This document shows, in pieces, positions 1 to 25,181 of a stretch of 32,000 bases of DNA (its first letter is position 1; each line of letters starts with the position of its first letter). Below the pieces are notes generated by a model. It made no database searches. It saw only the letters and a program-made list of their open reading frames with translations, and was not told the origin of the DNA. A program made the translations under genes and the position numbers. The stretch spans positions 66,718 through 98,717 of the forward strand of contig NZ_KB898707.1 of assembly GCF_000377745.1 (NCBI RefSeq), read 5' to 3'. Source of the DNA: Gilvimarinus chinensis DSM 19667 (GTDB lineage Bacteria > Pseudomonadota > Gammaproteobacteria > Pseudomonadales > Cellvibrionaceae).

Positions 1-1882
1 CAAATGGAAATTCCGGTTCGTGGCCGTAATCGAGATGATTAGAGGAGTTGCCAGGTGCATGTTGAAATACCCCCTGTTCAATGTCGCCAATGAGTGTGTA
101 ATTGTCCTCGGTTGCCGGGCGCCCGGTGGCCATACGATTGTAATAGATGGGGATTTGCCCTTCACCTTTAGGCCAGGTAATGGGCAGACGGCCCACCGGC
201 GAATAATCACCGTAGAGGACATCGACTAAAGCCGGCCCCGCCATGGTGCCGGGATGCCAAGCCATCATAATCGCATCAGACTGATCGAGTACCGGGCCCA
301 GCTCGATGGGCCGGCCAGCCATAATTACCGTCACCAGCGGCTTGCCTGTTTCGCTTAAGGCTTTTACCAGCTCCTGCTGCGCGCCAGGTAATGCTATATC
401 AGCGCGGCTGTGACCCTCGCCGGATAAAATAGACTCTTCGCCACCTACATATACGATTACGTCGGCTTGTTGTGCGGCTTCTACGGCTTTATTAAAGTTC
501 TGGGTCGATGTGTCGCGGCTATATTCCAGCCCTTTAACAAAGGTAAAGGACTCATTTCCGCCCAGATACTGCTCTAGAGCGGGCACCAGAGACACGGAGT
601 CTTTTTTGTCGCCATTGTAAATCCAGGTGCCCAGCTGTTCGTGGGGCACATTCGCCAGAGGTCCAACAAGAGCGATCTTGGCCTCTTTGTTCAGCGGCAA
701 CACAGAATTGTCGTTTTTGAGCAACACAAAGCTTTCACGCGCCGCTTCGCGGGCGGCTTGTCTGTGTTCATCGCTTAAAATGACAGTATCGCGATTGCCT
801 CTAGGGTAAGGGTTATCCCAGAGCCCGAGTCGCATTTTGATTCGGAGCATATGACGCACTGCCTGGTCCAACTTGGCCTCTGTGAATTTTCCCTCCTCGA
901 TTAATTCGGGCAAAAACTTCTGATAAGTATCGGTATACATTTCAAAGTCGATACCCGCGTTGGCGCTCAACTCGGCAGCATGTTTGGCGTCTCGGGCAAA
1001 GCCATGGGGCAGCATTTCCATAACGGCATTCCAGTCACTGACTACGAAGCCGTCAAAGCCCCACTCATCCCGTAGTATCGTTTTCAGCGCATGCTTATTA
1101 GCGGTGGCGGGGATATCGTTCAAGGTATTGTAAGAGCTCATAATAGTCATAAGGCCCGCGTCAACGGCCGCTTTAAAGGGCGGCAAGAAAATGTCGCGCA
1201 GTCTCGCCTCTGGTATATAGGCGGCGTTGTAATCGCGACCGGCCTCAGCTGCTCCATAGCCAATAAAGTGTTTGGCCGAGGCTGCCATAGCGTCTGGGCG
1301 CGTGGGGTCATCTGTTTGAAAGCCCATGGTCATGGCGACCCCGAGTACAGAAGCCAGATACGGGTCTTCACCCAGAGTCTCCGCTATCCGCCCCCAGCGA
1401 GGGTCATGGGATATGTCAATCATCGGGGCAAAAGTCCAGCGAATACCGTCTGTTGTGGCTTCCTTGGCGGCGATGCGTGCACCCTTTTTAACCAGCTCCG
1501 GGTTCCAGCTGGCTGCCTGGCCCAAAGGGATAGGGAAGATGGTTTCGTAGCCGTGTATGACATCTTGGCCAAAAATCAATGGTATGCCTTGTGGGCTTTC
1601 TTCCACGGCGATTTTTTGCAGTTCGGCAAAAGCATTATCGTCGACAGAAGAAAAACTGACGTTCAAAAAGCCGCCGACTTCACCCCGGCGAATTTGTGCT
1701 TTGAGTTCAGGTAGCTGTTCTGCGCTATAGGTGCCAAAGTCGCGGAGTGCGAGTTGTCCCACCTTTTGGTCTATGGTCATAGTCTCGAGCAAGACATCAA
1801 TACGGTTCTCGATGGCATCGGCGTTGGCGAATGAGGCGCCGATACACATGATCGGCAAAGCGAGATTCATTAGCTTTTTCAT
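1..1882 (-). CDS. Glycoside hydrolase family 3 beta-glucosidase (BglX-like), secreted; C-terminal end cut by the window edge
   Basis: Absent from the ORF track because it is open at the left edge. My minus-strand translation from ATG (1882-1880) reads MKKLMNLALPIMCIGASFANA (signal peptide), then TIDQKVGQL, GIPLIFGQDVIHG, WTFAPMIDISHDPRWGRIAETLGEDPYL, KHFIGYGAAEAGRDYN and ILRDEWGFDGFVVSDW (GH3 nucleophile motif). The second domain shows VGGEESILSGEGHSRADIALPGAQQELV and AWHPGTMAGPALVDVLYGDYSPVGRLPITWP. The frame stays open to position 2. Confidence 0.9.
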   Translation of the reverse strand, partial: MKKLMNLALPIMCIGASFANADAIENRIDVLLETMTIDQKVGQLALRDFGTYSAEQLPELKAQIRRGEVGGFLNVSFSSVDDNAFAELQKIAVEESPQGIPLIFGQDVIHGYETIFPIPLGQAASWNPELVKKGARIAAKEATTDGIRWTFAPMIDISHDPRWGRIAETLGEDPYLASVLGVAMTMGFQTDDPTRPDAMAASAKHFIGYGAAEAGRDYNAAYIPEARLRDIFLPPFKAAVDAGLMTIMSSYNTLNDIPATANKHALKTILRDEWGFDGFVVSDWNAVMEMLPHGFARDAKHAAELSANAGIDFEMYTDTYQKFLPELIEEGKFTEAKLDQAVRHMLRIKMRLGLWDNPYPRGNRDTVILSDEHRQAAREAARESFVLLKNDNSVLPLNKEAKIALVGPLANVPHEQLGTWIYNGDKKDSVSLVPALEQYLGGNESFTFVKGLEYSRDTSTQNFNKAVEAAQQADVIVYVGGEESILSGEGHSRADIALPGAQQELVKALSETGKPLVTVIMAGRPIELGPVLDQSDAIMMAWHPGTMAGPALVDVLYGDYSPVGRLPITWPKGEGQIPIYYNRMATGRPATEDNYTLIGDIEQGVFQHAPGNSSNHLDYGHEPEFPF

Positions 1883-2185
1883 AGGTGACTCCGTTATCTC
1901 GTCACTTCGTTATTTGTGAGCAGCGTATCGCTGAGTGAATGGCCCATAAAACAGGCCTGCCGGGACTATAGGGCGGGTAGGCTGCTGTGTCGTACGGGGA
2001 AAGCACTTTTCGGGTCGAACGCCCCTATATCCGCAAAGTTCGGCCTGCTGGCATTTATTCGAACCCGTTCTGGCTAATCAGCAGGAAATACGAACGCTTT
2101 TTTAGGGTTAGCAGGCTAGCCTGAACAGGCAGGGTAGCTATATGGGATAGGGTTATTCCCACAATAATAATATGAGGCGAGTTTT

Positions 2186-3895
2186 ATGATCTTGCGACGA
2201 CTTTATCTGTGTGGTTTGACCTGTTGCTTGGCAGCTTGTGGTGGAGGGACAAGTAATGGGGCATCACCGGTCTCTCCCGGCGGACCCTCGGATGTTCCCG
2301 ATCCGGCGCCTACCAAACTTTTTGTGGATCGCACTGACGAAACCGGTATTGAATTTCTGGCAGGCTACAAAACCTCCAAAGGCGTCAGCGATATTATGAA
2401 GTACTGTGGCGGTGTAGCCTCCGGTGATATAGATGGCGATGGTCTGGTGGATTTGTTCTTTATTAAGGGCGATATCGATCGGCCCGGCCTCTACTTAAAT
2501 GAAGGTAACAACCGTTATCGTGAGGTGGCGGCTGAATGGGGCGTCGATATTCAGGACCACAAAGGTTGTGGCCCGGCTTTCGCTGACGTTAATGGTGATG
2601 GTCGGTTGGACTTGTTTGTGGGGGGCATCGACGGTGACCGGAGTTATCTACTCGTACAGCAGAAAAATAACCTAGGGCAGTGGCGTTTTATTGATAAAAC
2701 CCAGGAGTACGGCTTGGCGGAGCTGGTTTCTCCCAATACGATTTCGGCTTCATTTGGCGATTACGATGGCGACGGCTGGCTGGATCTCTTTTTAGGCCAC
2801 TGGGGAACCCCGGAGTCGGTGCCCAAGGAACATTTGTGGCGCAACTTGAGTGGCGAGCGCTTTGAGAATGTTACCGCTGAGGCTGGGTTGGCACAGCATA
2901 TGATCCAGCAGCCTAATAATACGGCGGTACTAGGAGCGGGGGTGGATTACAGCTTTTCAGGTGCTTTTAGCGATATCAATAACGACCGCTGCCCGGACTT
3001 GCTGGTAATTGGCGACTTTACCACCTCTCAGGTGTTTTTAAACCGCTGCGATGGTGTGTTTGAAAAGTACCTTTCTGATGTGATTGATGTGGACAATGGT
3101 ATGGGGGGCGCCACTGGCGATCTGGACAACGATGGTGACCTGGATTGGTTTGTCAGCGGTATTGCCACAGCCGCAGGGCAGGGCAATCGCCTGTACCAGA
3201 ATAACCATCAATCGGCCCAAAGCTATGCCCAGATGTTTACGGATGTAAGCAAAGACAAAAACATTGTCGATGGAGGCTGGGGGTGGGGCGCGTGCTTTGC
3301 TGACTTCGACAATAACGGTTGGCTGGATATCTTTCATGTTAATGGTTGGCAGGCGGGGTTGTTCGGCTCCAGCTATGCAGACGATCGTTCGCGGCTCTAT
3401 ATGGCGCAGACGGATGCTGAATCTGCGTTCCCCCACTATCTCGAAAAATCCCTTGCCTTGGGAATTACTGATCGTACGCAAGGGCGTGGCGTGGTGTGCT
3501 TCGATTCGGACAATGACGGCGATGTGGATATTGTGACCGCCAACGGTATTTTCGATGAGGGCTTGATACCATTTAAATTTTATCAAAACACTCACGCCGA
3601 TGCGGGGGCAAGTAGCAGTCGCCATTTGCGTATTCAATTGCGCGGTGCCTATCCAAACACCGCCGCCATAGGCAGCAAAATTCTTGTGGTGTCTTCACGA
3701 ATGACGCAAATGCGGGAGGTTACGGCCAACAGTAACTTTGTCTCAAACAATCCCGCTATCCAATATGTGGGATTACCACAGGGCGATTCTGCCGAAACGA
3801 TAGAAGTCCGATGGCGAGATGGGCGTATCAGCGTGTTGCACGGCCCCTTTTCCGGTATGCACATCACCATTGACCACCCAGACCGTAAGTTTTGA
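2186..3895 (+). CDS. FG-GAP/VCBS-repeat lipoprotein with C-terminal ASPIC/UnbV domain (CRTAC1-like)
   Basis: 569 aa ORF with a lipoprotein signal peptide (LTCCLAAC-GGG). It has six calcium-binding FG-GAP-type repeats: GDIDGDGLVDLF, ADVNGDGRLDLF, GDYDGDGWLDLF, GDLDNDGDLDWF, ADFDNNGWLDIF and FDSDNDGDVDIV. The C-terminus (LRIQLRG..NTAAIGSKILV...EVRWRDG) is typical of ASPIC/UnbV. Confidence 0.8.
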   Translation: MILRRLYLCGLTCCLAACGGGTSNGASPVSPGGPSDVPDPAPTKLFVDRTDETGIEFLAGYKTSKGVSDIMKYCGGVASGDIDGDGLVDLFFIKGDIDRPGLYLNEGNNRYREVAAEWGVDIQDHKGCGPAFADVNGDGRLDLFVGGIDGDRSYLLVQQKNNLGQWRFIDKTQEYGLAELVSPNTISASFGDYDGDGWLDLFLGHWGTPESVPKEHLWRNLSGERFENVTAEAGLAQHMIQQPNNTAVLGAGVDYSFSGAFSDINNDRCPDLLVIGDFTTSQVFLNRCDGVFEKYLSDVIDVDNGMGGATGDLDNDGDLDWFVSGIATAAGQGNRLYQNNHQSAQSYAQMFTDVSKDKNIVDGGWGWGACFADFDNNGWLDIFHVNGWQAGLFGSSYADDRSRLYMAQTDAESAFPHYLEKSLALGITDRTQGRGVVCFDSDNDGDVDIVTANGIFDEGLIPFKFYQNTHADAGASSSRHLRIQLRGAYPNTAAIGSKILVVSSRMTQMREVTANSNFVSNNPAIQYVGLPQGDSAETIEVRWRDGRISVLHGPFSGMHITIDHPDRKF

Positions 3896-3903
3896 GGTTA
3901 ACC

Positions 3904-5887
3904 ATGCAAATAAAAAAAAAACATTCTATTAATAGCGGCCCTTGGGGCTTTGGTAACCGCTTGTGGCGGCAGTGGCGAGACAAGCGAAACCGTTGATGCG
4001 CCCCCGCCGCCACCCGCTACTCGTGAACCCCTTAGCGATGAAAAATCACCCTCGCTAGCTCGGCGCTGGAACGAGGTTTTGTTGGAGGCTATCCGCAATG
4101 ATTACGCGCGTCCGACTTCTCATGCGCGTAACCTTTTTCATTTGTCTGCGGTGATGTATGACGCCTGGACGGTATATTCAGATACGGAGAGCTCCTACTT
4201 GCTGGGGAAAACATTGAATGGTTTTTCCTGTCCATTCGATCGCGATGGCTTCACGGTTTATAGCGAGAAGGCTCGTGAAACGACCATAAGCTACGCGGCC
4301 TATCGTTTGATTACGCATCGATTTTCGCAGTCGCCGAGTGTTGCCTATACGCTATTGCAATCCAACAGATTGATGGAGACATTGGGGCTTAATCCTGAAC
4401 TGGCCACACCCAGTGCACAAAGCGGTGCCGCGGAGCTGGGCAATTACATCGCAGATTGCTACATTCGTTACGGCTTGCAGGACGGCTCCAATGAGGAAAA
4501 CGGCTATCAAAGCCGTTACTATCAGCCGGTTAATCCGCCCATCGCGCCCGCCGAGCCAGGCAATCCGGATGTGAATGACAGGGGGCGGTGGCAAGCGATT
4601 GAGCTGGAAACCTCTATTGATCAGTCTGGCAATCAGGTGTCTTCAGTCCCTAAGTTTATTGGGGCAGAGTGGGGCAATGTCTTGCCGTTTGCGCTGACTG
4701 AGTCGGATCGGCAGAGCCATCAGCGCGGTGGCCACACATACACCGTCTATCTCGACCCGGGCGAGCCTCCCTATCCCAATAGTCACTACCGGGAGATCTA
4801 TCAACGCACCTTCGCCTTGGTGGCTATCTGGGGTGCGCACCTGGACCCGGCAAAGACGCCCGTTATTGATATTTCGCCCGGCGCCCTGGGTAACCTGGAT
4901 ATAGACGAATTTCCCCGCGATTTTAGCGAATACGATCAGTTCTACTCGTTGTTTGCCGGTGGTGACCCTGGCAAAGGCCACGCTGTAAACCCTATTACCG
5001 GGCAATCTTATCCAAAGCAGGAAGTGCCTCTGGGCGATTATGCGCGAGTATTGGCAGAATTTTGGGCAGATGGCCCGGAATCGGAAACACCACCAGGGCA
5101 TTGGTTTGTCATTCTCAACCATGTGACTGACCACCCCGATTTTGAGCGTCGTCTCTGGGGCGCTGAATCTGTCGGGCCACTAGAGTGGGATATCAAAGCT
5201 TACTTTAGCCTCGGGGCGGCGATGCACGACTCGGCGGTGGCGGCCTGGAGTAACAAGGGCTGGTATGATTTTACCCGGCCCGTTTCAGCCATACGGGCCA
5301 TGGCGGATCTGGGACAATCCAGTGATCCTGCTGCGGCGTCTTATCACCCCGAGGGGCTGCCACTCTACCCAGGTTTTATCGAGCTGGTTAGGGAGGGGGA
5401 TCCGCTTGCGCAAAACCAGCCAGAGAACATTGGTAAAATTAAGCTCTATAGCTGGCGTGGCCCAGACTATATTGAATCGCCGCAAACCGATATTGCGGGG
5501 GTTGGGTGGATTTTGGCGGAAAACTGGTGGCCTTACCAGCGGCCAACATTTGTCACCCCGCCCTTTGCCGGCTATGTGTCGGGTCACTCTACCTTTTCCC
5601 GTGCGGCGGCGGAGGTCTTAACCGCGATAACCGGAAGTGAGTACTTCCCGGGTGGTATGGGCGAGTTTGAAGCACCGAAGAACGAATTTCTTGTCTTTGA
5701 GCGCGGGCCCAGCACCGACGTTACCTTGCAGTGGGCAACATACCGGGACGCGTCCGATCAATGCAGCTTGTCAAGAATCTGGGGTGGTATTCACCCGCCG
5801 GTGGATGATCTGCGAGGACGTTTTATGGGCGAGAAAGTCGCGCAAAAAGCCATAAACTTGGTGCAAGCAATGTTTGCTGGCGATTGA
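3904..5887 (+). CDS. PAP2-superfamily / vanadium-dependent haloperoxidase-like lipoprotein; 5' end out of frame with its apparent start because of an A10 tract (uninterrupted frame 3914-5887; track ORF 3950-5887)
   Basis: All three acid-phosphatase/V-haloperoxidase signature blocks are intact: KGWYDFTRP (K-x6-RP), VSGHST (xSGH) and SRIWGGIHPPVD (SR-x5-H-x3-D). The long frame encodes KKNILLIAALGALVTAC-GG (a lipobox) just after TAA 3911-3913. GAGG 3894-3897 plus ATG 3904 lie one frame off. Confidence 0.75.
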
Positions 5888-5930
5888 ATGCGGATTCGGT
5901 GGGGCCAGAGCCGTGAATCAGGGGCGGTAG

Positions 5931-5961
5931 GAGCATAAAGGCCTGGCAGGCCTTTATGCTC
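5931..5961. terminator. Hairpin between convergent genes (bidirectional terminator candidate)
   Basis: GAGCATAAAGGCC (5931-5943), TGGCA loop, then GGCCTTTATGCTC (5949-5961). This is a perfect 13 bp stem between the PAP2-like gene and the lyase-like gene. It has no long T run. Confidence 0.55.
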
Positions 5962-5999
5962 GTTGAGGTTATACGGATTTCGAAGATGTATTCACCGGA

Positions 6000-7487
6000 T
6001 TAATAGACTCTAACCTTGAGAAACTGACATCCATTGTTGGGTGTTATAAATAGGGTATTACCGGAGAAACTATCGGACGAAGCGTAGTTTCCAGTAACCT
6101 CAAGTTGTCCCGAGCCCGATTGGTCTTGAATGTTGCCACGGAAATTGCATTGACTGTTTGCGTCGCTATCCCATACCTGCAGAGTCCTGTTTTGCAGGTT
6201 TTCAGGGAAGGTAACACAGCTGGCAACGCCCAGCTCAATTTCGGTTCTTGTGTCCATTGCCATTTGCTCACAATTGTTCGCGCTACTCGAATTGCTACTG
6301 GAGCTACTGGAATTGTTTGAGCTGCTGCTAGAGCTGCTCAAGCTGGAAGACGATGCCTGGGAGCTGGATGAACTACTGCTTGAGCTTGTGGGGCTGCCGC
6401 CACATGAGCCATTTAATTCGTCGAAGCAGGGGTAAGGACCGTTGTTTGGCTGCTCAATTGATTGGTCTAGAGAGTAATCGATATTTCTGGTTTGATAATC
6501 TTTCCACACCAAAGTTGTCCCGCCATCCAAACGAGTATTGTTCGAAATGTGCATGGTAGGCTCTTGCGCTCGGAAGGTACCAGCCGAATAAGGCAGGTTA
6601 AACTCGTTATCGTAGATGTTTGAACGTTTGTGCTCACGATAGCTGTACACAGCATGAGTAATATTATCGTCGCCTTTGTAGTCCATAACGTTATTGCGCA
6701 CCAGAGCCTCATTACCTTTTAGGTCGATAAAGCTATCTGCTTGGGGGGAGGCCGATGTGCCTACGATACCCCGGGCATCTACATGGTTGTACTCAATGAC
6801 TGTCCCGGTAGTGCCCGCTTTAACATCAAAAGCCTCGGCAGTAACCCAGGGACCGATAGTGCAGCCGCCGATGGTGTTGTAATCGCTATTGTCGGGTGGG
6901 GATTCTTGATGACCGTTATTAGTGCCGACATACACCCCTTCACCGGTGCCTTCTTTACCCTCGCGCTTGCCTGTGTCGTGAATATAGCAATTGGTCAGCT
7001 TGTTGTAAGAGCTGCTATCGCGAAAGTGCACGGCTTCCTGGCCTACGTTATAAACTTCTACATTATCGATTAAGTTGTGATTCGCCCCTTCGAGCATGAT
7101 CCCTTTTTGTGCCCCGGTAAATTTCAGGTCTTTAACTTCCCAGTAATCCCCTTCGAGCAAAAGAACATACCCCGTATCAACGTTATCTCCTTTCAGAACC
7201 TGTTTGCTGGAGGTTGAAGCACTTCGTAAAACAATCGGGGAATTGGCAGTCCCGCTTTTGTCACTGAAAAAATGAGCTCGGCCTTCACCGCTTGTACTTC
7301 TGTTGCCCGTATATGAGCCCGCGTGAACCACAATTTCATCGCCAGGGCTTGCGCTTTTTAGCGCATTTTGGAGCTCTACTGAGTTATAAACTGGAAGGGT
7401 GGCTGCAAAGCTGGTTGTACTAACTAATGCGGTAGCAGCGATGAGAAGTTGTAACGAAGTCATATTTTTATGGTGTTGATTCTTCAT
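6000..7487 (-). CDS. Secreted right-handed parallel beta-helix polysaccharide lyase/hydrolase-like enzyme, poly-Ser linker and about 90 aa C-terminal Cys-containing (carbohydrate-binding?) module
   Basis: The track ORF is 6000-7499. I prefer ATG 7487 because GGAGG lies 5 nt upstream, giving MKNQHHKNMTSLQLLIAATALVSTTSFA-ATLP as the signal peptide. The N-terminal block VELQNALKSASPGDEIVVHAGSYTG is followed by repeated beta-helix turns (NHNLIDNVEVYN, YNKLTNCYIHD). A 43 aa Ser-rich linker precedes a 90 aa module with 4 Cys. The exact CAZy family was not determined. Confidence 0.6.
   Translation of the reverse strand: MKNQHHKNMTSLQLLIAATALVSTTSFAATLPVYNSVELQNALKSASPGDEIVVHAGSYTGNRSTSGEGRAHFFSDKSGTANSPIVLRSASTSSKQVLKGDNVDTGYVLLLEGDYWEVKDLKFTGAQKGIMLEGANHNLIDNVEVYNVGQEAVHFRDSSSYNKLTNCYIHDTGKREGKEGTGEGVYVGTNNGHQESPPDNSDYNTIGGCTIGPWVTAEAFDVKAGTTGTVIEYNHVDARGIVGTSASPQADSFIDLKGNEALVRNNVMDYKGDDNITHAVYSYREHKRSNIYDNEFNLPYSAGTFRAQEPTMHISNNTRLDGGTTLVWKDYQTRNIDYSLDQSIEQPNNGPYPCFDELNGSCGGSPTSSSSSSSSSQASSSSLSSSSSSSNNSSSSSSNSSSANNCEQMAMDTRTEIELGVASCVTFPENLQNRTLQVWDSDANSQCNFRGNIQDQSGSGQLEVTGNYASSDSFSGNTLFITPNNGCQFLKVRVY
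6273..6401 (-). repeat. Low-complexity poly-serine linker coding region
   Basis: Encodes GGSPTSSSSSSSSSQASSSSLSSSSSSSNNSSSSSSNSSSANN using mixed AGC/AGT/TCN codons. Coordinates are approximate to within a few nt. Confidence 0.85.
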
Positions 7488-7929
7488 TAGTGCCTCCATG
7501 GAGGGTAATTGGTAAGTGTTTTTTATGTTATTTGATTAAAAGTGCGCCATAAGTTGGTGCGAATTCAAATATAGTAAGGTGGCCTACTGGTAAGACCAAA
7601 GCAAGGCTAGTACGCCAACGGATGCGTGTCAATTTGTTCTGATGGTTTTGTATAGTGGTTCACTAATGAATGGTCTACTCACCCACCCGGCCAATAATTA
7701 TTGGCTGTGGTATGGGATATTTATTTAATTTTTTTCAATGAGTGACGACGTCGTGTAAATCGATTAGTTGCCACTTTCAGCGTGTTTTATCGAACACTTA
7801 GATTAGGCATTTTCGGTAAAGCGTGCTATTTGCTCGTTTTTTGTGACTTAATCGAGTTTTCATTTGGGCGTGAGCGGCTGAGCGTTGCAAAGCCTCGTGG
7901 GACTTGTCCCTGCAGCTCTCGGATAAGTA

Positions 7930-8241
7930 GAGGTAATTGTGGGTGATTTGCGGGTGGAAAAGGAGTCGTGTCAACCATGGATGTGTATCTTTGATACTGA
8001 AGGGCATCCACTGGTTGATGGCGGACTGGAATACTGGGGGCAAAACCTGCTTTAACGAGTCGGGTAAGCGTTGTTTTAAAGATTTTTGGGCTCACTCTTC
8101 CGACCAGTAAAAGCCGCGTTTAAAGCGTCTATTGACTGGGTGTTTGAACGCTGGCAGCGGGGACCTGCTATACATATTTACCATTATGCCAATTACGAGA
8201 TTGCCGCCTACCGCAAGTTAATGAGCCGGTATGGTGTGTAG
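7930..8241 (+). pseudogene. Remnant of a RecB-family (TM0106-type) nuclease gene, multiply frameshifted
   Basis: Three collinear fragments lie in different frames: WMCIFDTEGHPLVDGGLEYWGQNLL(stop), DFWAHSSDQ(stop) and RPVKAAFKASIDWVFERWQRGPAIHIYHYANYEIAAYRKLMSRYGV(stop 8239-8241). The fDxEg...eYL, FWAh and IYHYxxYE...L..ryg blocks match my memory of that family. Only about 100 of the several hundred expected residues remain. Confidence 0.55.
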
Positions 8242-8436
8242 TCGCTCGGCCTTGATCTGACATTTATCCGATTTTCATCCAGTGCCTGTCAGTCTAGGTC
8301 TGAGTTACTGCAAGTAATGGGGGTACACCATTGTGGGGCAGAGCCTGCGCCCTAAAAATCCAGGGTTTTCGCACAAAGCCGCTTGGTTTCCAGGGCGAAA
8401 GATAAGTAGATCAGGACGATTTGTTTATCCATCCGG

Positions 8437-9417
8437 TTAATAGTAACGTCTCTCTATCTGAGATCCGTTAAAAGTGCCCAATATTTCTGTTTCCACACGG
8501 TCAGATCGTTTTTTTCGTCGCACACGCGCATCAAAGTCTTTAATAGGCGTACTGGTAAGTGGTTGATTTTGCAAGATAATAATAGGCATTACGGCAGTAA
8601 CTGTTTGCGTGGTGTTACGCATCAGGTTGGCCACAGGTTGTACCCGCACATCCCGCCTAAGTCTTAATTGTTCCGGTGGTACGGGGCCAATACTTTCTAT
8701 GAGTTGCTTTAGCGGGAGTCCCGCTATCTCGTCACGGTTTAAAGCCTCCGCTTCAATTCGCTCTATCAGTTGTTGTTTGCCCTTCAAGTCCAGTTTGCTC
8801 AGAAGCTGCTTTCTTTCCCAACTGAACCCCAGGTTGCGAATATCTTCGCTCATAAAACACTTAATTGTTCGGTATAGATGGACTGTCATTATGCTGCTGC
8901 GAACCTCGCGAAGCGCTTTGAAGCGAGCTTGCCGGGAGGGTAGGGCGGTTATTTTTTGCCGTAGAGAGACTTTGTGCTGGTTAATGTTATCTACGCAATT
9001 GAGAAGCTTCTGAAGCTGATCGTTAGGGGTGTTGTGCGGTTGGATCCAAATCACTCCCACACGTCTTCTGGCGATTTTTTGGGATAGACCTTTCTTGATA
9101 TAGAGGTCCTGGAAGCTTCGGATGGCCTCTTCAATGGCGTCGTGGGCATGAACTGTTTCACCCGTAATCCTACTTACTGGGCTATCTTCCTGGCCTTTTA
9201 TAGCATCGGGAAGCTTTGTCACAAAAGCACAGCTTGATTCGATGCTTCTGAGCACTTGGGCCAACTGTGTAAGTCCCTCGTCAAGTTTACGAAAATGATC
9301 AGATATATCGCTTTGCGAGGATGACGGAGCAATAAGTTCAAACGGTTTGTCTTTCAATTTATGACTCCTAGAAGCATTTACTCTCGATAATACATCCATT
9401 AGACCAACATGCAACAT
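8437..9417 (-). CDS. tus: Tus-like DNA replication terminus site-binding protein homolog
   Basis: 326 aa, collinear with E. coli Tus as I recall it. The matching blocks (window / Tus) are: VTKLPDAIKGQEDSPVSRI / VFSLPEVKKEDEHNPLNRI; RRVGVIWIQPHN / RLPGVLCYQVDN; LPSRQARF...VHLYRTIK / LPTAARF...LNAYRTLT; LGFSWERKQLLSKL / LRFGWANKHIIKNL; RRDVRVQPVANL / KRPVKVQPIARV; MPIIILQN / TPLIALIN. Offsets stay within 16-28 residues throughout. An alternative start at ATG 9399 (MDVLSRV) would place the Ter-like repeat just upstream. Confidence 0.7.
   Translation of the reverse strand: MLHVGLMDVLSRVNASRSHKLKDKPFELIAPSSSQSDISDHFRKLDEGLTQLAQVLRSIESSCAFVTKLPDAIKGQEDSPVSRITGETVHAHDAIEEAIRSFQDLYIKKGLSQKIARRRVGVIWIQPHNTPNDQLQKLLNCVDNINQHKVSLRQKITALPSRQARFKALREVRSSIMTVHLYRTIKCFMSEDIRNLGFSWERKQLLSKLDLKGKQQLIERIEAEALNRDEIAGLPLKQLIESIGPVPPEQLRLRRDVRVQPVANLMRNTTQTVTAVMPIIILQNQPLTSTPIKDFDARVRRKKRSDRVETEILGTFNGSQIERRYY
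9399..9414 (-). promoter_or_regulatory. Ter-like 16-mer, left arm of inverted pair (reads TTGCATGTTGGTCTAA on the minus strand)
   Basis: Perfect reverse complement of 9513-9528. It contains GCATGTTG, matching G-N-ATGTTG of the E. coli Ter core (GTATGTTGTAACTAA), and CTAA displaced by 1 nt. It abuts or overlaps the start of the tus-like gene. Confidence 0.5.
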
Positions 9418-9512
9418 TGTTTTTAGATGGCAATATCAGTTCTGTTTAACTTTTTAAATGAGATTCGGTAAATGGTTAAACAGAGTGTAGGGTTTTATGT
9501 TATTGCCACCTT

Positions 9513-9528
9513 TTGCATGTTGGTCTAA
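9513..9528 (+). promoter_or_regulatory. Ter-like 16-mer, right arm of inverted pair (TTGCATGTTGGTCTAA)
   Basis: Perfect inverted copy of 9399-9414, with 98 bp between the arms. Nested inner inverted repeats are GGCAATA/TATTGCC and CTGTTTAAC/GTTAAACAG. Confidence 0.5.
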
Positions 9529-9678
9529 AGTTTGGGTTCCAGCGAATAATTCTGCTCGTTGAGAGGATCGTAGCTTCTTAGGTCACCATTAGTTGCCTTG
9601 GGGGTGGCGATATAACTTACGGTGTTTAGGCGTCCCAAGCTCACTCTATTAATATAAATAAAGACTAATATATTGTCC

Positions 9679-9706
9679 TTTAAATCAATAAAATAGCTGG
9701 TATAAT
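9679..9706 (+). promoter_or_regulatory. Candidate sigma70 promoter for hipA (extended -10)
   Basis: TGGTATAAT at 9698-9706 is a TGn extended -10 with a perfect TATAAT. The weak -35 is TTTAAA at 9679-9684. It lies only about 15 nt before ATG 9721, so the mRNA would be near-leaderless or the true start is the downstream Met at 9739. Confidence 0.4.
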
Positions 9707-9720: not shown

Positions 9721-10995
9721 ATGGCGCCTGAGCTTTATATGCAGAGAAAACCCTACTCGCGGTGTTACGTATTCGCCGTAGACCCTCTTGGCAAAACAAG
9801 CCTTGCTGGGGAGTTAGAAATGATGCGCGCCGGGGGCAGTTTTAAATATAGTGCCTCGTGGCTGGCACGCGTTGATCGCTACGCGCTTGACCCAGAAAAC
9901 TTGCCTTTAGTGCCTGAGAAACAGTATTGCGATAACACGAATGGAGTGTTTCCGGTCTTTTCCGATGCGGGACCCGATGACTGGGGTAACCGGGTTATGT
10001 TGCAGCGGCATGAAAGCCAACCGCGCAATGAGATAGAACGGTTACTACGTACCAGCGGTACTGGTGTGGGTGCATTGCGCTTCTCTTTGTCTCGCACCCG
10101 CCCCAAACCTCCGCCCCCAGCACAAGATATTGCCCTGCTGGAAAGGCTCGCGGTTGCGGCTGAGTCAATTGAAAAGGCCGATGAGCTAAGTCCAGATGAA
10201 TTTAAACTGATTGAGCATGGCTCTTCCATGGGCGGCGCCAGGCCCAAAGCAGTCGTAGCCGATGGTGAGAAAGAGTACATCGTAAAATTCTCTAAGCAAG
10301 GCGACCTGCTACAGGATTTACCTCGGGTGGAATTCGCCACGATGACTTTACTGGCCAAAGCGGGTCTAAACGTCCCCGAGGTTAGAATCCAGAAAATCGG
10401 TGCCGACCGCACTGCGTATCTTATTCGCCGATTCGATGTCGACGCTGGTAAAGTAGTGCGTCATTACTTATCCGCCCACGCTCTTTTCAACAAAGAGCGT
10501 CACAAAAAGTACGCCGATGGTCATAACGACGATCGGGGCTATATCGCCCTCAGCCGAAAAATCCGTAGTCATTGTCAAAACCCCACCCAAGATTGCGGCG
10601 AACTGTTTGATCGCATTGTTGCCAATGTTTTGCTGGGCAATTCCGATGACCACCCCCGCAATCACGGTTTTGTCTACGATCTAGATCATGGCCATTGGAG
10701 CCTGGCGCCACTTTTCGATGTTGTGCCCATACTTTCTTCAATCGCGAAACCTCAAGCTATGACCATTGGAACCGACGGATACGAGCCCTCGGTAGCCAAC
10801 ATACTAAGCTGTGCTCAGGCTTTCGGGCTTACTCAGCAGGACGCGCTTAAACGAATAGCTGGGTTTATTGAGATTATGGCCACCTGGGAGGAACACTACC
10901 AATCTTGCGGCGTTCCTGCCGCTGATATCCGCCAGCTCCATAGGCTAATTGGTACGAGGGTTAAAGAAGCCCGAGAAGCGCTTGAACAAATTTGA
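9721..10995 (+). CDS. hipA: HipA-family serine/threonine kinase toxin (type II TA)
   Basis: 424 aa. The N-terminal coupling region reads SFKYSASWL...LPL...FPVFSDAGPDDWGNRVM. Other motifs are the Gly-rich loop SSMGGARPKAVV, the catalytic loop GNSDDHPRNHGFVY and the Mg-binding LAPLFDVVP. Confidence 0.9.
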   Translation: MAPELYMQRKPYSRCYVFAVDPLGKTSLAGELEMMRAGGSFKYSASWLARVDRYALDPENLPLVPEKQYCDNTNGVFPVFSDAGPDDWGNRVMLQRHESQPRNEIERLLRTSGTGVGALRFSLSRTRPKPPPPAQDIALLERLAVAAESIEKADELSPDEFKLIEHGSSMGGARPKAVVADGEKEYIVKFSKQGDLLQDLPRVEFATMTLLAKAGLNVPEVRIQKIGADRTAYLIRRFDVDAGKVVRHYLSAHALFNKERHKKYADGHNDDRGYIALSRKIRSHCQNPTQDCGELFDRIVANVLLGNSDDHPRNHGFVYDLDHGHWSLAPLFDVVPILSSIAKPQAMTIGTDGYEPSVANILSCAQAFGLTQQDALKRIAGFIEIMATWEEHYQSCGVPAADIRQLHRLIGTRVKEAREALEQI

Positions 10996-11329: not shown

Positions 11330-11396
11330 GTATCGGACAGTACTTGTAGAGTGTGTCCGTTCCATTCCTATTAACTCCATTCCTAGAGCGTTTTCA

Positions 11397-11732
11397 CTAA
11401 AAGCTCATCCTGGATACGGCGTTAATGGCTTCCCAAGCCTTTTCTATCTCCTTGATATCTCCGCTTAGAAGTAAGTCAATGGGGCGTGCGCCACAAAAAG
11501 GTTGGTTGTAATTTTTCATCGTCATAAACCCATCGACATTCTTAGGGTTCTCGAAAAGGCGTTTTAGCGTATCGTCTATCGCGATGATATATTCGCACTT
11601 CATATAATGAAGTTGTGTTTCATGAGTCGCCTCATAACTCGACAGTCCCAGAATCAAATTCTTCTCTGAAGGTCCAATCCCCCAACGGTTCAAAACTTTT
11701 TCTGCGTCCATTATTATTTTATCTCTTATCAT
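11397..11732 (-). CDS. DUF2384 (Xre/MbcA/ParS-type antitoxin toxin-binding domain) protein, no partner toxin
   Basis: 111 aa. The C-terminal FMTMKNYNQPFCGARPIDLLLSGDIKEIEKAWEAINAV fits the DUF2384 pattern (W/F..t.N..lgG.rPidll.s..g...v...l..i). No RES or other toxin ORF lies adjacent on this strand. Confidence 0.6.
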   Translation of the reverse strand: MIRDKIIMDAEKVLNRWGIGPSEKNLILGLSSYEATHETQLHYMKCEYIIAIDDTLKRLFENPKNVDGFMTMKNYNQPFCGARPIDLLLSGDIKEIEKAWEAINAVSRMSF

Positions 11733-12056
11733 TCAATCTCGCCTATTTATGATCAGGTATGAATTAAACTTTTGACAAAGTAGCTCTCTGGACCTGTTAT
11801 TCCAGAGAAGGCTACTTTTAGTGGGGGTGGTAATTATATGGCGTCGGTTTCCTAAGAGGATTATTAATCCTGATTCAGAATCAATCCACCGGACGACCAT
11901 TATAGTATGGTCGTCGTGATAAAATATAATCGCAAGAGTTTTTTCATGAAATTTAAAAAAACGGTGTCAGATCAAAAATTCTTGACTAAACCTTTGACAA
12001 ATCAGCGCCTCTTTTTCAATATCGAAAGTGGACGTGATGACTAACGAGGTAGGCTC

Positions 12057-13238
12057 ATGGATTTGGGGCTTTTTCGAATAGGGGTGGCTCTCAAGCAGTA
12101 CCGAAAAGAGAAAAGCTTAACGCTTTCGGATCTCGCTGAGAAGACCGGGTTGGAGTGTAGCACTTTATCCGCAATCGAAAATGGGCGCTTTGATGGTGAT
12201 ATCGGTGACCTGTTGACTTATATCCACGTTGCTAGTCTTGAGATCACATGTGTCCGCCGAGATCAATCCTTCCCTCAGCTTCATGTTCAGGATAGTTTCA
12301 GAGCAGAGAAGTACCTAAATAATCCTCCCCTTCTGGCGCCTAAAATTCTTACTTCTCCTTGCGCCGATAAGCACTTTATCCACAAAGTTGATACCCAGAC
12401 CATCAAGCAGTACTTGGTCTACATAGAATGCGGCCTTGTGGGAACCATAGAATTCACTACCAAAGGCTTAGTGGTCACCAATCTCTGCCCTCGAGTATCG
12501 AGCGAGTATTCCGAAGGCCGCACTTTACTGAGCGATAATGATGTAAGAAACCAGTTTCGTTTCCCTTTTTTTGGTTCGCTGGACTTGGAGCGTGACTGCC
12601 TGCGTATTGGCTTCGAACTGGACGAGGATGACGTTTTAGCCACTGCGGCCATAACTTTGGAGCCCCTTAATGAGAAACTTCAAGTCCTGGCTAGCGAACA
12701 AGTGGACCTAAAACCTATCTACATACCGTCTTCATTTTCGAAGCAAGAGAGCAGCTCAATAGTTAATGATGTAAAGCCAAGACTTTTGGTACTCGATGTA
12801 GATAATACTTTGCTGAGTACGCATGCCTACGATGCCAACGGTAATCGCACCAGCCGAACCAGCACAGAGCTAGGCGTAAACGCTCAGGCGGCCAGTTACA
12901 ACACTGGAGATCAGTTACAAACTCAGAGCAATACGATTTTCGATAGCATCGGAATATCAGTAGCAACTGAACTTGCCTGGAGAATAAAAGAGACATATAC
13001 AGCTGCCAGTTGCAAATTAAAATGCCAAGCGAAATGCGTTCTCTTGTTTATAGGTGCAAAAGCAACTGGTGATGTAATTAACAATATAGCAGAAAAGACT
13101 GTTAATTCCTTCAAGCTGGAAGCTAAATCGTTAGCGAGGAAATGGTTGCTTAGAGCAATGCCGGGTGTGGGATGGGTAAGCACAGCTTATGCAGCTGGAG
13201 AATCAATAAATTGCCAAATAATATGCTGGGAAATTTAA
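12057..13238 (+). CDS. Chimeric protein: N-terminal XRE HTH, then a HipA-N-terminal-like segment, then an unrelated AT-rich C-terminal part of unknown function
   Basis: GAGG lies 7 nt upstream of ATG 12057. The HTH reads LKQYRKEKSLTLSDLAEKTGLECSTLSAIENG. Residues about 115-200 (LVYIECGLVGTIEF...FRFPFFGSLDLERDCLRIG) resemble the HipA N-subdomain (tentative). No kinase motifs follow. Instead come LLVLDVDNTLL, HAYDANGNRTSRT and a Cys-rich tail. Composition drops to AT-rich after about 12700. Confidence 0.5.
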   Translation: MDLGLFRIGVALKQYRKEKSLTLSDLAEKTGLECSTLSAIENGRFDGDIGDLLTYIHVASLEITCVRRDQSFPQLHVQDSFRAEKYLNNPPLLAPKILTSPCADKHFIHKVDTQTIKQYLVYIECGLVGTIEFTTKGLVVTNLCPRVSSEYSEGRTLLSDNDVRNQFRFPFFGSLDLERDCLRIGFELDEDDVLATAAITLEPLNEKLQVLASEQVDLKPIYIPSSFSKQESSSIVNDVKPRLLVLDVDNTLLSTHAYDANGNRTSRTSTELGVNAQAASYNTGDQLQTQSNTIFDSIGISVATELAWRIKETYTAASCKLKCQAKCVLLFIGAKATGDVINNIAEKTVNSFKLEAKSLARKWLLRAMPGVGWVSTAYAAGESINCQIICWEI

Positions 13239-13558
13239 TTTTGAGAAATTATATTTGGGCTTTTCTAATTTTTATTTTGTTGGTAATTTCCACTATGGCG
13301 AAGGATTTATTGATATGGAATGAAGGTAATAGCTTTATTGAGGCCTTTTCCCATAAAAAAGTTATTCATTATATTGTATATCTTTGGGTATATTCCATTT
13401 GTGCGATAGCTTTGTTCGGCGGTCGTTATATATACCATCAACTTCGGGGTGAAAAGTGCCGTCCTATTCGAAAAATAACTGCTCCCTATATATTTATTTT
13501 GCTCTTTGGTGTAGCGTTTTTTATCACTGATGCTGTGGTAAATCGTTTTTATGGTTGA
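13223..13558 (+). CDS. Small three-TM membrane protein (immunity-like), start overlaps the upstream stop
   Basis: Internal ATG 13223 of track ORF 13172-13558 overlaps the upstream gene by 16 nt (ATGCTGGGAAATTTAA). There are three hydrophobic helices: IWAFLIFILLVISTMA, VIHYIVYLWVYSICAIALFGG and APYIFILLFGVAFFITDAVV. I recognise no family. Confidence 0.5.
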   Translation: MLGNLILRNYIWAFLIFILLVISTMAKDLLIWNEGNSFIEAFSHKKVIHYIVYLWVYSICAIALFGGRYIYHQLRGEKCRPIRKITAPYIFILLFGVAFFITDAVVNRFYG

Positions 13559-13645
13559 GTCGACTGGATCGCTCGGCTTTTAAGCGGGTAGTTGGTTTGG
13601 TACTTACTCGTTTAATATTTCGGAATTCTTGGGGCAAATACCGTT

Positions 13646-13951
13646 TTAAATGGCAAGCCCTTTCGCACCTTTGTTGTCGTCAAATGGCATTCCGCTCTTT
13701 AAGACTCCATAGCTCAAATGAATAAGCTTGCACATGGCGGCACCGATTATCACCATTTTTGACTTTCCTGTTTCTGTAAGCCAGACGTACAGTTCAATTA
13801 TTGAAGGGTTACATTTAATTGCTACCATCGCAGGGAAAAACAGCGATTTCCGAAGTGATGCAGGGCCGACTTTTGACATGCAACCGTATCGGTTAATGGA
13901 GCTTACAGACTGAATTTCCCGGGGTGCTACACCGCAGAATGATGCGAGCAT
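13646..13951 (-). mobile_element. IS110-family transposase, C-terminal stump only
   Basis: 101 aa. LASFCGVAPREIQSVSSINRYGCMSKVGPASLRKSLFFPAMVAIKCNP...GKSKMVIIGAAMCKLIHLSYGVLKSGMPFD matches the IS116/IS110/IS902 C-terminal domain pattern (yaGl.P....SG......iSk.G...lR..L..aA..a.r.np......Gk..kva..AvarKl....y.vlk.g..fd). The N-terminal catalytic domain is absent. Confidence 0.75.
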
Positions 13952-14148
13952 TTGGAATAGGCAGAGGTGGGAGTTCGGAAGCTCTATTAAAATGGATGTG
14001 CCTACGAATATTCGGGGTAATCCGAGTGAGAATAGAGCCGATATAACTGAAATGTATCGTAGTTATAAGTCAGAGATTTGTGAGTGTGATGGATAGAGTT
14101 AAAGTTCTAAGAGGGTCGCTTTTAGGTTTAGGATGAATCCTGATTTCT

Positions 14149-14505
14149 ATGATTTTGTTTACTGCAACCTATGATTCTAGAGAGTATAGTCATATCAAAG
14201 AGGAAACTAAAGTAAGGCTTTATGACCTGGGAAAGGCGCTAGCTCTTTATAGTAGAGATTATGGTCGGTACCCAAGTTCGGAGCAAGGGAGCGGAGAGTT
14301 AGTTGGTTACGAGAAAAGGTATGTCAGGTATCTGATTGATTCCGACGCGTGGGGAAATAGATTTATTTATTTGGAGCCTCCAAAGGCTGATATGCCTTTT
14401 AATTTATATTCAAAAGGTAAAAATCAAACTGATGAACGTGGAGGCGGAGACGATATTAGTTATTGGAAAGTAAAACCTGAACTTGACGAGGCTTTCAGAG
14501 AGTAG
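14149..14505 (+). CDS. GspG-like (type II secretion major pseudopilin) globular domain without prepilin leader; probably a gene remnant
   Basis: LGKALALYSRDYGRYPSSEQG...DAWGNRFIYLEP...FNLYSKGKNQTDERGGGDDISYW fits the T2SS G C-terminal domain pattern (Y..d.G.YP...qGL..L......DpWG..Y.Y......y.l.S.G.Dg......DI.nW). An in-frame TGA lies just upstream, within what looks like the hydrophobic N-terminal helix (RGSLLGLG-stop-ILISMILF). Confidence 0.55.
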   Translation: MILFTATYDSREYSHIKEETKVRLYDLGKALALYSRDYGRYPSSEQGSGELVGYEKRYVRYLIDSDAWGNRFIYLEPPKADMPFNLYSKGKNQTDERGGGDDISYWKVKPELDEAFRE

Positions 14506-14753
14506 AAATAGTAGAATTACAGGATTGGTAGGGTGAGCCTACACTAGTTTACTAGATAGCTCACAGTAAAATAAAGCAGGACAAAAAGAGGTGTTTATGA
14601 GCAAGTAGATTTACCCAGAAGAGATTGAAATAAAGCAACCAAACTGAACACTGTGTAATCTCCCCAGTAATCCACAGCGGTTATTAATAGAAAATTCTAA
14701 TAAAAATAAGATTAAGTCTCCCCGTCAAGTAGACAATCCATAATTAGAATATT

Positions 14754-15926
14754 TTATCTATCTGAGTCCCACGGAATCTGAGGCACAGGCTCTCTCGGTT
14801 GGTCCCACGCCAGCTTTTTAGTAAGTTCCGCCATTCCACCGCGTTTCGCCTGAATACGCTTGGCGTATTGAGTCAGCATCGCCATGGATTTCCAGCGTCC
14901 GGACAGCATAATCTTTGCCGAATCCACATTCCCTTCGACCATCTCCTGCGCCGCGCCCACGCGGTTTGAGTGCCCGGAGAACACCGAAGGCTCCAACCCT
15001 AACCGACCGGCCGTACGTTTAAAACAGCGCGACACACCGCGCTCCGACAGGCGATTGCCCATTTTGCCGCTGGAATAAATGCCTCGAAAAATTGCCCCAG
15101 AACTCTGCCCACTGCGACGCTGCCAACCCAGGAGCAAATCCGTGGTGTTGCGAGAGAGGTACAGATACGAGCCATCACCGTCCTGATCGGTTTTGTGCCA
15201 ATCGAGTTCCAGTAAGCTGGAGCCATCCGAATCGATGCGCAGGTCCTCCCAATCAAAGCGCACCAGCTCAGACTGACGGCATAAAGTTTCAAAGCCGACG
15301 AAGAGTAGGGCGATGTCTTGGCAATCGCGCGCAATAGCGGGGTCGAACAACGAGAGTGCTTGTTCCAGGTGAGCCACCCGCAGGCCTTCGGCCTGGCGCC
15401 GTTTATTTTTCACCATTTTGCGAATACGGCCGAGTCGATTTCTCACTTTAAACGAGGCGCGCGGATCATCCATCTCCATGGCATTAGCCCACGCGACAAG
15501 ACTGGACACTCGACGATCAATGGCCGAGCGCTTACGACCCTCAGCCATCATATGCGAAAGGTAGGCATCCACGGCATAATCCTCGAACGGCAGCGGCGGA
15601 TAACCCATCCGCACACAGTACTCGACGTACTGACACAGATCGCTGTAGCGGGCGATTTCCGTGTTATTGGGAACCGTGTCCAGCATGTCCATTGAGCGCC
15701 GATCAAAACGTTCAAACAGCTCCCACGACAATACTGGCTGCAAGCTCTTCAGCAAACGATCTCGGTAGCTCGCAATTTTTAATTGATGGGGCGTTTTTCG
15801 CGGAATAATCGCTTGGGCGTCCAGCGTACCATTGACCCGGTGGTCAGAGCGCTGCTTCACGTTCTTTTTACCCGCGGCGACCCGAGCGGCGTTTTTGTCG
15901 CGGCGCTCCGAAGGAAATTCGCTCAT
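14754..15926 (-). CDS. Tyrosine site-specific recombinase (phage-type integrase)
   Basis: 390 aa. The catalytic signature is FETLCRQSEL (Arg I), GHSNRVGAAQEMV (H-x-x-R) and SGRWKSMAMLTQY (W/H ... Tyr nucleophile). It sits at the right edge of the island. Confidence 0.9.
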   Translation of the reverse strand: MSEFPSERRDKNAARVAAGKKNVKQRSDHRVNGTLDAQAIIPRKTPHQLKIASYRDRLLKSLQPVLSWELFERFDRRSMDMLDTVPNNTEIARYSDLCQYVEYCVRMGYPPLPFEDYAVDAYLSHMMAEGRKRSAIDRRVSSLVAWANAMEMDDPRASFKVRNRLGRIRKMVKNKRRQAEGLRVAHLEQALSLFDPAIARDCQDIALLFVGFETLCRQSELVRFDWEDLRIDSDGSSLLELDWHKTDQDGDGSYLYLSRNTTDLLLGWQRRSGQSSGAIFRGIYSSGKMGNRLSERGVSRCFKRTAGRLGLEPSVFSGHSNRVGAAQEMVEGNVDSAKIMLSGRWKSMAMLTQYAKRIQAKRGGMAELTKKLAWDQPREPVPQIPWDSDR

Positions 15927-16105
15927 TCAACGGCTTCTCACATGTGGTTAATTATTGACCGCATAGTGCCATTTTTACTTATATGTGTCAAATAAGTACA
16001 ATTATAGGACATATATAAAGTAAAGTAGAAAAATTATTTTTTCGACACATCTTTAATGCTTACTCGAACAGTCGTAAAAATGACCAAAATCACATTTTCA
16101 TGATG

Positions 16106-16129
16106 TTTTGTATACAATATATAGTATAC
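16106..16129. promoter_or_regulatory. Candidate operator: TTTTGTATACAAT plus a second GTATAC 14 bp away, upstream of the GH16 agarase gene
   Basis: GTATAC palindromes lie at 16110-16115 and 16124-16129. The 13-mer TTTTGTATACAAT is identical to 30197-30209. Related sites are at 7645-7656, 20318-20329 and 30031-30056. Confidence 0.4.
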
Positions 16130-16182
16130 ATATTAGGATGCATCCTCCGCTCCAAGATCATAATAACGTTAGAGAGGCACAG

Positions 16183-17946: not shown

Positions 17947-17959
17947 ACATTGTTAACCC

Positions 17960-17982
17960 GGTGCGACTTTACCAGTCGCACC
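17960..17982. terminator. Hairpin between convergent genes
   Basis: GGTGCGACT (17960-17968), TTACC loop, AGTCGCACC (17974-17982). It lies 14 nt after the GH16 stop and has no T run. Confidence 0.45.
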
Positions 17983-25180: not shown

Positions 25181-25181
25181 G

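Follow-up and report, generated by a model that had tools for sequence, protein, structure and literature searches.

The stretch of Gilvimarinus chinensis DNA analysed here (the window, 32,000 nt, extended on the right by 4.5 kb from record L036, to about 36.5 kb) carries a tus gene for a DNA replication terminus site-binding protein of 306 aa (8437..9357, minus strand) and, just upstream of it, two inverted 16-mers that resemble Ter sites. Tus-Ter is the textbook replication fork barrier. A first-pass annotation of this DNA had described the 16-mers as perfect inverted repeats, and they are exact reverse complements: TTAGACCAACATGCAA (9399-9414) and TTGCATGTTGGTCTAA (9513-9528) stand 98 nt apart, with similarity between the two arms reaching 37 nt at 73% identity. 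The pair is not due to chance: inverted repeats with an exact seed of at least 11 nt within 400 nt number only three in the 32 kb, and the pair at 9399-9528 is the longest exact one. We estimate that 32 kb should contain about 0.001 perfect inverted repeats of 16 nt within 150 nt. At up to three mismatches, the arm 16-mer occurs three times in the window, against 0.30 expected.

The gene beside the arms is a true Tus homologue with the Tus fold, in agreement with its first description as Tus-like. Its reading frame matches the Pfam family Ter (PF05472) at E 1.4e-35 over profile positions 2-283 of 296, a phmmer search of the PDB retrieves E. coli Tus at E 6e-12, and an AlphaFold model (pLDDT 76) finds structural matches to Tus-DNA only (E 7e-16, TM 0.66). 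The product is 100% identical to the 306-aa protein that NCBI lists for G. chinensis on a 774-kb contig. It shares 65% identity with the Tus of G. agarilyticus, 35-43% with plasmid Tus proteins, which are its nearest relatives, and 26% with E. coli Tus. The pocket that receives the flipped C6 in E. coli Tus reportedly consists of I79, F140, H144 and G149, in work attributed to Mulcair and colleagues in 2006; positions I79 and F140 are invariant across the aligned relatives.

The listed open reading frame (8437-9417, minus strand) is longer than the probable gene. The probable start codon is TTG at 9357-9355, which aligns with the N-terminus of G. agarilyticus Tus and gives the 306-aa length of the NCBI protein; a Shine-Dalgarno sequence, AGGAG (9365..9369, minus strand), can be read 7 nt before it. 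The in-frame ATG at 9399-9397, overlapped by the proximal arm, is probably not used. With the start at TTG 9357, the left arm sits 42 nt upstream of it, contrary to the first claim that it abuts the start codon. A similar question arises in G. agarilyticus, where tus (L001 10001-11050) is annotated at 349 aa in a frame that crosses the vicinal Ter site; the alignment points to ATG 10133 as the true start, so the public annotation is probably wrong.

Related loci define the motif that the arms carry. Relatives were fetched from G. agarilyticus, Moritella, Thiopseudomonas, Denitrificimonas, Pseudoalteromonas, Alcanivorax, Aliagarivorans, metagenomic contigs and plasmid copies, and were searched with GCATGNTGGTCTA at up to two mismatches. 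In all 27 of 27 related loci, a match of this type precedes the tus match by no more than about 80 nt, on the tus strand, which bears out the earlier suggestion that the arm echoes TerB upstream of tus. The 32 distinct sites give the clade motif TGNATG(A/T)TGGT(C/T)TA, or position by position T-G-[C/T/g/a]-A-T-G-[A/T]-T-G-G-T-[C/T]-T-A-[A]. Eleven positions are invariant across these sites, including the G of the G/C(6) pair, an invariance partly imposed by the search that collected them. The sole freely variable position is the one at which E. coli Ter varies too.

A direct check against E. coli MG1655 places TerB, AATAAGTATGTTGTAACTAAAGT, on the tus strand, ending 11 nt before the tus ATG. 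The first-pass reading that each arm equals the G-N-ATGTTG part of E. coli Ter, with CTAA shifted by 1 nt, matches this site. The two share G(6), the freely variable base after it, ATG-T-TG and CTAA. The core AGNATGTTGTAACTAA of E. coli Ter is not matched, TAA being replaced by GT, and most relatives read GATGG rather than GTTGT. The clade motif is distinct from E. coli Ter, though clearly related to it, and the proximal arm (9399..9414, minus strand), an exact arm that reads TTGCATGTTGGTCTAA on the tus strand and carries the conserved motif, is the likely counterpart of TerB. Moritella, Thiopseudomonas and Denitrificimonas have only this vicinal site, with no inverted partner.

An inverted partner like the distal arm (9513..9528, plus strand, the exact inverted copy of the proximal arm) is conserved elsewhere. 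An inverted copy stands upstream of the vicinal site at ten sequenced loci, which amount to about eight distinct elements when near-identical plasmid relatives are counted once. The arms are 98 nt apart in G. chinensis, 89 nt in G. agarilyticus, 164 nt on a metagenomic contig bearing TraF, about 170-180 nt in Pseudoalteromonas (L007) and plasmid L026, 185 nt in Alcanivorax nanhaiticus, where the context is IncC-like (int-tus-kfrA-uvrD-traF-traH), about 195 nt on a Vibrio plasmid and on IncC plasmids from E. coli and V. cholerae, and 208 nt in Aliagarivorans, which has an extra tandem site. On the plasmid pMEGA the pair lies at 19361 / 19547. The spacers measure 89 to 208 nt and share no helical phase. 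Within a genome, complementarity between the arms is always complete (100%) over 14-16 nt; between genomes they vary in concert (GTTG vs GATG; CTAA vs CTAG vs TTAA). In G. chinensis and G. agarilyticus, both arms are identical while the spacer and flanks show identity at the random level.

G. agarilyticus also has a third exact Ter core, CTGCATGTTGGTCTAAA (L001 6920-6932, minus strand), which is intergenic and 3.2 kb from the pair. It is oriented as the distal arm and looks like a back-up site for it; G. chinensis has no equivalent. The inter-arm spacers of IncC, Vibrio and Pseudoalteromonas plasmids and of one metagenomic contig (L027 3746-3941, L029 3733-3931, L026 3753-3924, L002 1940-2123) share pyrimidine-rich repeats of the TTTCTCTC type, which are absent from both Gilvimarinus spacers.

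The 98-nt spacer of G. chinensis (9415..9512) is an imperfect palindrome. It holds both of the nested inner pairs that had been described, one at 9425-9438 / 9498-9511 (86%) and the other at 9441-9456 / 9469-9484 (88%); their centres, 9468 and 9462.5, fall near the outer centre at 9463.5. As single-stranded DNA, the spacer folds better than 200 of 200 shuffles (z = -4.15). Conservation of the palindrome beside homologous genes, proposed as a check, holds for the arms and their partner at the ten loci and fails for the rest, since neither the sequence nor the length of the spacer is conserved. The inner repeats were rejected as a conserved feature because they are absent from the other loci that bear a pair. 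With no counterpart in other genomes, they are probably incidental and specific to G. chinensis. Speculatively, they could be the trace of a local palindrome-forming event.

The third match in the window, TTGCATGTTGGTGTAG (31586-31601, minus strand), is a degenerate copy with two mismatches inside a TonB-dependent receptor gene. A match like this is expected about 0.02 times per window by our own estimate. It carries G where 32 of the 32 distinct family sites have C or T, and is for this reason probably inactive, a non-functional pseudo-Ter. Pseudo-Ter3 of E. tarda resembles it.

Polarity can be approached through replication strand bias. A fork is blocked only when it reaches the G/C(6) end of Ter, as reportedly described by Neylon and colleagues in 2005 and Mulcair and colleagues in 2006. 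At loci with a single site, the tus-sense GC skew is almost uniformly negative, as in E. coli, so that the normal fork would travel against tus and meet the CTAA, or permissive, end, as at TerB. This pattern supports the E. coli-like polarity suggested in the first-pass annotation, in which the non-permissive ends of the pair would face each other. The proximal arm is accordingly predicted to stop forks running right to left, and the distal arm those running left to right. Reversed polarity was rejected: the interval would be unreplicable, and at almost all loci with a single site the vicinal Ter would stand in the way of the normal fork.

Skew switches of the terminus type also coincide with the pair. 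In pMEGA (64.8 kb), the cumulative-skew maximum falls at 18-20 kb, at the pair, and the origin-side minimum near rep at about 60 kb, so that the maximum is placed asymmetrically. In an IncC plasmid from V. cholerae (139 kb), skew climbs for 123 kb from repA at position 1 and stops at the pair (122840 / 123049); beyond it, skew is flat or negative while the gene strand is unchanged. The pair represents the only sites at up to one mismatch in these 139 kb. In IncC records (NZ_OW443149.1, L032-L034 and others), repA does not lie opposite tus and its pair, which stand about 16 kb from it in the counter-clockwise direction, and backbone genes nearly all point clockwise. This arrangement suggests that IncC replication is very asymmetric or effectively one-way, ending at the pair.

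In each of the two Gilvimarinus chromosomes the skew switches no more than 1 kb from the pair; for G. chinensis this holds with one island masked. In G. agarilyticus, skew is positive in five 2-kb bins upstream and negative in five of six downstream, and the cumulative-skew maximum lies at 9134, with the pair at about 10050. In G. chinensis, skew is +0.070 over 1-8436, -0.066 over 16051-32000 and -0.049 in the 4.5-kb extension. Between these parts lies a low-GC segment (11391-16050, GC 0.41-0.47) with aberrant positive skew, which ends with a tyrosine recombinase gene (14754-15926, minus strand). G. agarilyticus has no such segment between its HTH (helix-turn-helix) and CBM6 genes, and the segment is probably a recently inserted island. 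With 11391-16050 masked, the cumulative-skew maximum of G. chinensis falls at 10072, about 550 nt from the pair. KOPS motifs (FtsK-orienting polar sequences, GGGNAGGG) agree: five of five in the two Gilvimarinus loci point to the pair, assuming that the gammaproteobacterial KOPS holds in Gilvimarinus.

The proximal arm may serve a second function. Its TTGCAT may be the -35 element of a tus promoter, as a candidate -10 element, TATTAT (9387..9392, minus strand), can be read 16 nt after it. Hexamers resembling a -10 element also stand 16 to 18 nt past TTGCAT in IncC (TACTAT), Vibrio (TAAAAT), Alcanivorax (TATAAG) and Moritella (TATGCT). A generic promoter scan did not call the candidate tus promoter, the -35 match being only 3/6. 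Because the proximal arm overlaps this candidate promoter, Tus bound there would occlude its own promoter and so autoregulate tus. In E. coli, terB lies within the tus promoter (PMC8347550), and tus and rtp are both autoregulated (PMC10331603). The first-pass annotation had offered a fork trap or an operator; there is support for both readings, yet they are not alternatives, since the proximal arm is probably fork-trap member and operator together.

From the computed sites, their conservation, the homology and fold of Tus and the coincidence with the skew switch, we infer binding, polarity, fork arrest and autoregulation: the two 16-mers would be Ter sites of the adjacent Tus, forming a self-encoded, inward-facing pair that traps forks and also controls tus. 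We consider this reading probable, though some way from assured. Either fork would pass the first Ter that it meets and halt at the second, so that both would end inside the 98-bp interval. Together, tus and the two opposed sites would make a complete, self-encoded replication fork trap. The same module belongs to the backbone of IncC plasmids, related MOBH conjugative plasmids and pMEGA, where GC skew suggests that it marks the terminus. Because it lies at the skew switch, the chromosomal copy in Gilvimarinus most likely sets where the chromosome ends replication. A further proposal, to which we give about an even chance, is that Gilvimarinus has domesticated an IncC/MOBH-type cassette as a chromosomal trap of practically no width (98 bp) that leaves dif outside, independently of the three clades reported to have a resident tus.

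Several observations weigh against this interpretation. In the protein, the pocket position H144 is Arg in Gilvimarinus, IncC and two others, His in four and Lys in one, and P148-G149 is replaced by Ser-Ser in G. chinensis alone, all other family members having Pro-Gly. In the site, the clade motif has one base fewer between GTTG and CTAA than E. coli Ter. The degenerate copy at 31586-31601 is oriented the wrong way and would oppose a fork coming from the right. In the skew data, the unmasked maximum of G. chinensis lies at 14635, 5 kb from the pair, and a Pseudoalteromonas locus flanked by transposases has the opposite skew. That locus (L007) was also considered as a chromid origin region and rejected, being transposase-flanked with a plasmid-type tus. 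A plasmid of P. agarivorans (121 kb), noisy and only loosely consistent, is not counted as support; its rep lies about 16 kb from the pair, and its skew is strong on the long arm and about 0 on the short arm. Finally, tus occurs in only two Gilvimarinus species among the genomes scanned and, in G. chinensis, lies in a low-GC stretch beside a toxin-antitoxin pair and an integrase island, so that it could be a recent mobile insertion.

The same side of the balance includes dif. Chromosomal traps described so far have dif inside them. A search for dif over about 36 kb in G. chinensis and 21 kb in G. agarilyticus gave nothing convincing, using the E. coli and gammaproteobacterial consensus at up to three mismatches, the arms only, best-match ranking and a scan for ATAA-N6-TTAT. 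The best matches reach 17/28 in the window plus its 4.5-kb extension and 19/28 in the G. agarilyticus locus, measured against the gammaproteobacterial dif. The best palindromic candidate, ATAAGTACAATTAT (15985-16012, beside the integrase gene), was rejected with a 14/28 match to dif. The absence of a recognisable dif near the skew switch is unusual for a terminus region and holds at both Gilvimarinus loci. Either dif is divergent in Gilvimarinus or it lies outside the sequence at hand; a 98-bp trap could not contain dif plus both sites in any case.

Two rival explanations deserve weight, both of them unlikely in our judgement. According to the first, the pair is a transcriptional operator only, through which Tus represses tus, and perhaps the divergent hipA, with no role in replication here. 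The overlap of the proximal arm with a plausible tus promoter (TTGCAT, 16 nt, TATTAT) and the E. coli precedent of an autoregulated tus with terB in its promoter (PMC8347550; PMC10331603) fit such a role, as does a weak rightward promoter-like sequence, TTGCCA-17-TAAAGT (9503-9531), that overlaps the distal arm. Against it, many tus genes, including those of Moritella, Thiopseudomonas and Denitrificimonas, have just the proximal site. The distal arm has no conserved divergent gene, as the genes upstream are co-directional in IncC plasmids and unrelated elsewhere. Cooperative looping between the arms is not expected, because a spacing of 89-208 nt has no common helical phase and Tus is monomeric (PMC10331603). 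Nor does this reading account for the coincidence of skew maxima with the pair.

The second rival, which we find about equally improbable, regards the pair as the relic of an integrated plasmid module: the cassette would act as a fork trap on plasmids, but the Gilvimarinus copy would be an island passenger whose position at the skew switch is coincidental since islands gather near termini. The low-GC stretch around the pair (about 6 to 16 kb), the adjoining integrase island and a HipA/HTH toxin-antitoxin neighbour like that on pMEGA are what such an origin would leave behind. The closer affinity to plasmid Tus proteins (35-43% identity) than to E. coli Tus (26%), the patchy distribution in the genus and the lack of a nearby dif point the same way. 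Yet the window contains no tra or rep genes, and although the two Tus proteins have diverged to 65% identity, both species keep identical arms and a skew switch less than 1 kb away. Moreover, an active inward-facing pair anywhere in the chromosome would still stop forks and shape termination. It is scarcely credible that the repeat is instead a structural or selfish element unrelated to Tus (miniature transposon ends, a cruciform or a structured RNA): its 130 bp do form a long imperfect palindrome whose spacer folds significantly as a single strand, but there are no other copies in the window and no meaningful Rfam score, the inner pairing is conserved in no other genome while the arms are, and at more than 25 loci from several orders the arms go together with tus. 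Miniature inverted-repeat transposable elements and insertion sequences would be dispersed and free of any tie to a gene; this element has a single copy in the window and elsewhere always stands beside tus.

Comparison with known systems clarifies what is new in a self-encoded trap of this kind. Like TerB-tus of E. coli, the locus combines a Tus-family protein with an asymmetric site on the tus strand just upstream of tus, with the same variable position in the site and the same polarity as judged from skew. Unlike TerB, which ends 11 nt from the start codon, the site here lies about 42 nt away (55-77 nt in relatives). The protein is only 26% identical and differs at H144 (Arg) and, in G. chinensis, at P148-G149 (Ser-Ser), and E. 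coli has no inverted partner next to TerB.

Plasmids offer a parallel in site arrangement. An inverted 20-bp core is said to have been described in R6K by Horiuchi and Hidaka in 1988. R6K and R1 (terRL/terRR) have closely spaced, opposed Ter sites, which halt forks coming from either side at one point, and use the Tus of their host (PMC10331603). As in these plasmids, an opposed Ter pair lies within a few hundred bp here, and a fork would pass the first site and stop at the second, the inward orientation following from E. coli polarity. The differences are that R6K and R1 combine an E. coli-type Ter with host Tus, while the module here has its own tus and a distinct motif. It does not depend on a plasmid location or a host Tus, as tus adjoins the pair and the Gilvimarinus copy is chromosomal.

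Among chromosomal systems, the nearest analogue in layout is the IRI/IRII pair beside rtp in B. subtilis. Close IRI/IRII spacing at terC was reportedly noted by Carrigan in 1987 and by Smith and Wake in 1992. The arrangement predicted for Gilvimarinus shares with terC a chromosomal pair of opposed terminators directly before the gene for the terminator protein; at terC the two are separated by a few tens of bp, and rtp is autoregulated (PMC10331603) through the site nearest to it. RTP is a winged-helix dimer, however, and because the proteins and sites are unrelated, the likeness is one of convergence and not of membership.

Enterobacterales have type I traps, in which the innermost position is taken by the vicinal Ter, two sites suffice (as in Edwardsiella tarda) and the skew switches between them (PMC8707476). 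Both Gilvimarinus loci likewise have an innermost vicinal Ter, an opposed Ter and a skew switch, one of them with the island masked. The narrowest type I traps described are that of Dickeya, at 18 kb, and that of E. tarda, at 56 kb (Toft et al. 2021, PMC8707476), and dif lies inside those of E. tarda and C. neteri (PMC8707476). In G. chinensis, no dif lies inside the predicted trap, and the sites are 98 bp apart and both on the same side of tus. Three clades have been reported with a resident tus (Galli et al. 2019); Gilvimarinus, a member of Cellvibrionales, falls outside them.

The genes around the pair are chromosomal in character and include an agarase, CBM6 proteins, a TonB-dependent receptor, cytochrome/HEAT proteins and polysaccharide-utilisation genes. 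To the right of the pair stands a HipA-family kinase gene (9721-10995, plus strand), followed by its HTH partner, the block ending at 11329. The partner comes after hipA and not before it, and the listed open reading frames overlap. pMEGA also has a HipA/HTH pair, about 7 kb from tus. A palindrome, TAAAGACTAATATAT / ATATATTGTCCTTTA (9659-9682), extends into the -35 element of the hipA promoter predicted at 9679-9706, where it may act as the hipA operator. The inner repeats of the spacer were considered for this role and are unlikely to fill it, as the predicted hipA promoter lies 200 nt off and has its own palindrome. At the right edge of the island at 11391-16050 stands the palindrome ATAAGTACAATTAT, and no tRNA gene was found in the window as a target for the island.

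On the other side of tus, a hairpin-forming stretch at 8347-8398, about 40 nt past the stop codon, gives spurious mir-551 matches on both strands and may be the tus transcription terminator. An Rfam search over 7.4-9.8 kb, with E up to 1, returned spurious eukaryotic matches only. The region at 7.5-8.4 kb has no convincing gene. Further left, a perfect 15-nt hairpin, GAGCATAAAGGCCTG / CAGGCCTTTATGCTC (5931-5961), follows directly after a gene ending at 5887 and is probably a terminator.

To our knowledge, no Ter sequence has been defined outside Enterobacterales. A 2023 review marks Ter there with a question mark (PMC10331603), and an attempt to locate Ter sites in Pseudoalteromonas by means of the E. 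coli consensus was unsuccessful (PMC7858055). Some plasmids are known to carry tus, and Tus has been proposed to derive from plasmids (PMC6549158). The plasmid-type Tus clade comprises about 1,330 PLSDB plasmids, mostly IncC multidrug-resistance plasmids, and a PLSDB search for a chromid-type Pseudoalteromonas tus returned plasmid-type genes only. The IncC or IncA/C tus/ter literature, in a search that left most subscription journals uncovered, yielded no description of Ter sites or of a pair. The novelty would lie in a module of self-encoded Tus and inverted Ter sites with a distinct motif, common to IncC-type plasmids and found at the skew switch of Gilvimarinus.

If the domestication proposal is true, TGNATG(A/T)TGGT(C/T)TA is the Ter sequence, until now undefined, that belongs to the plasmid, or mobile, Tus clade, and IncC plasmids finish replication at a fixed point 16 kb from repA. 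The motif would also give a concrete sequence for the search in the Pseudoalteromonas chromid (PMC7858055). A portable three-part trap fits the proposed domestication of plasmid systems as chromosomal traps (PMC6549158). Compared with the narrowest trap described (18 kb), the chromosomal trap of Gilvimarinus would be narrower by a factor of about 200, forcing forks to a single meeting point. Such a module would offer an orthogonal Tus-Ter pair for biotechnology and would provide a clean natural setting in which to study how forks fuse at a fixed site.

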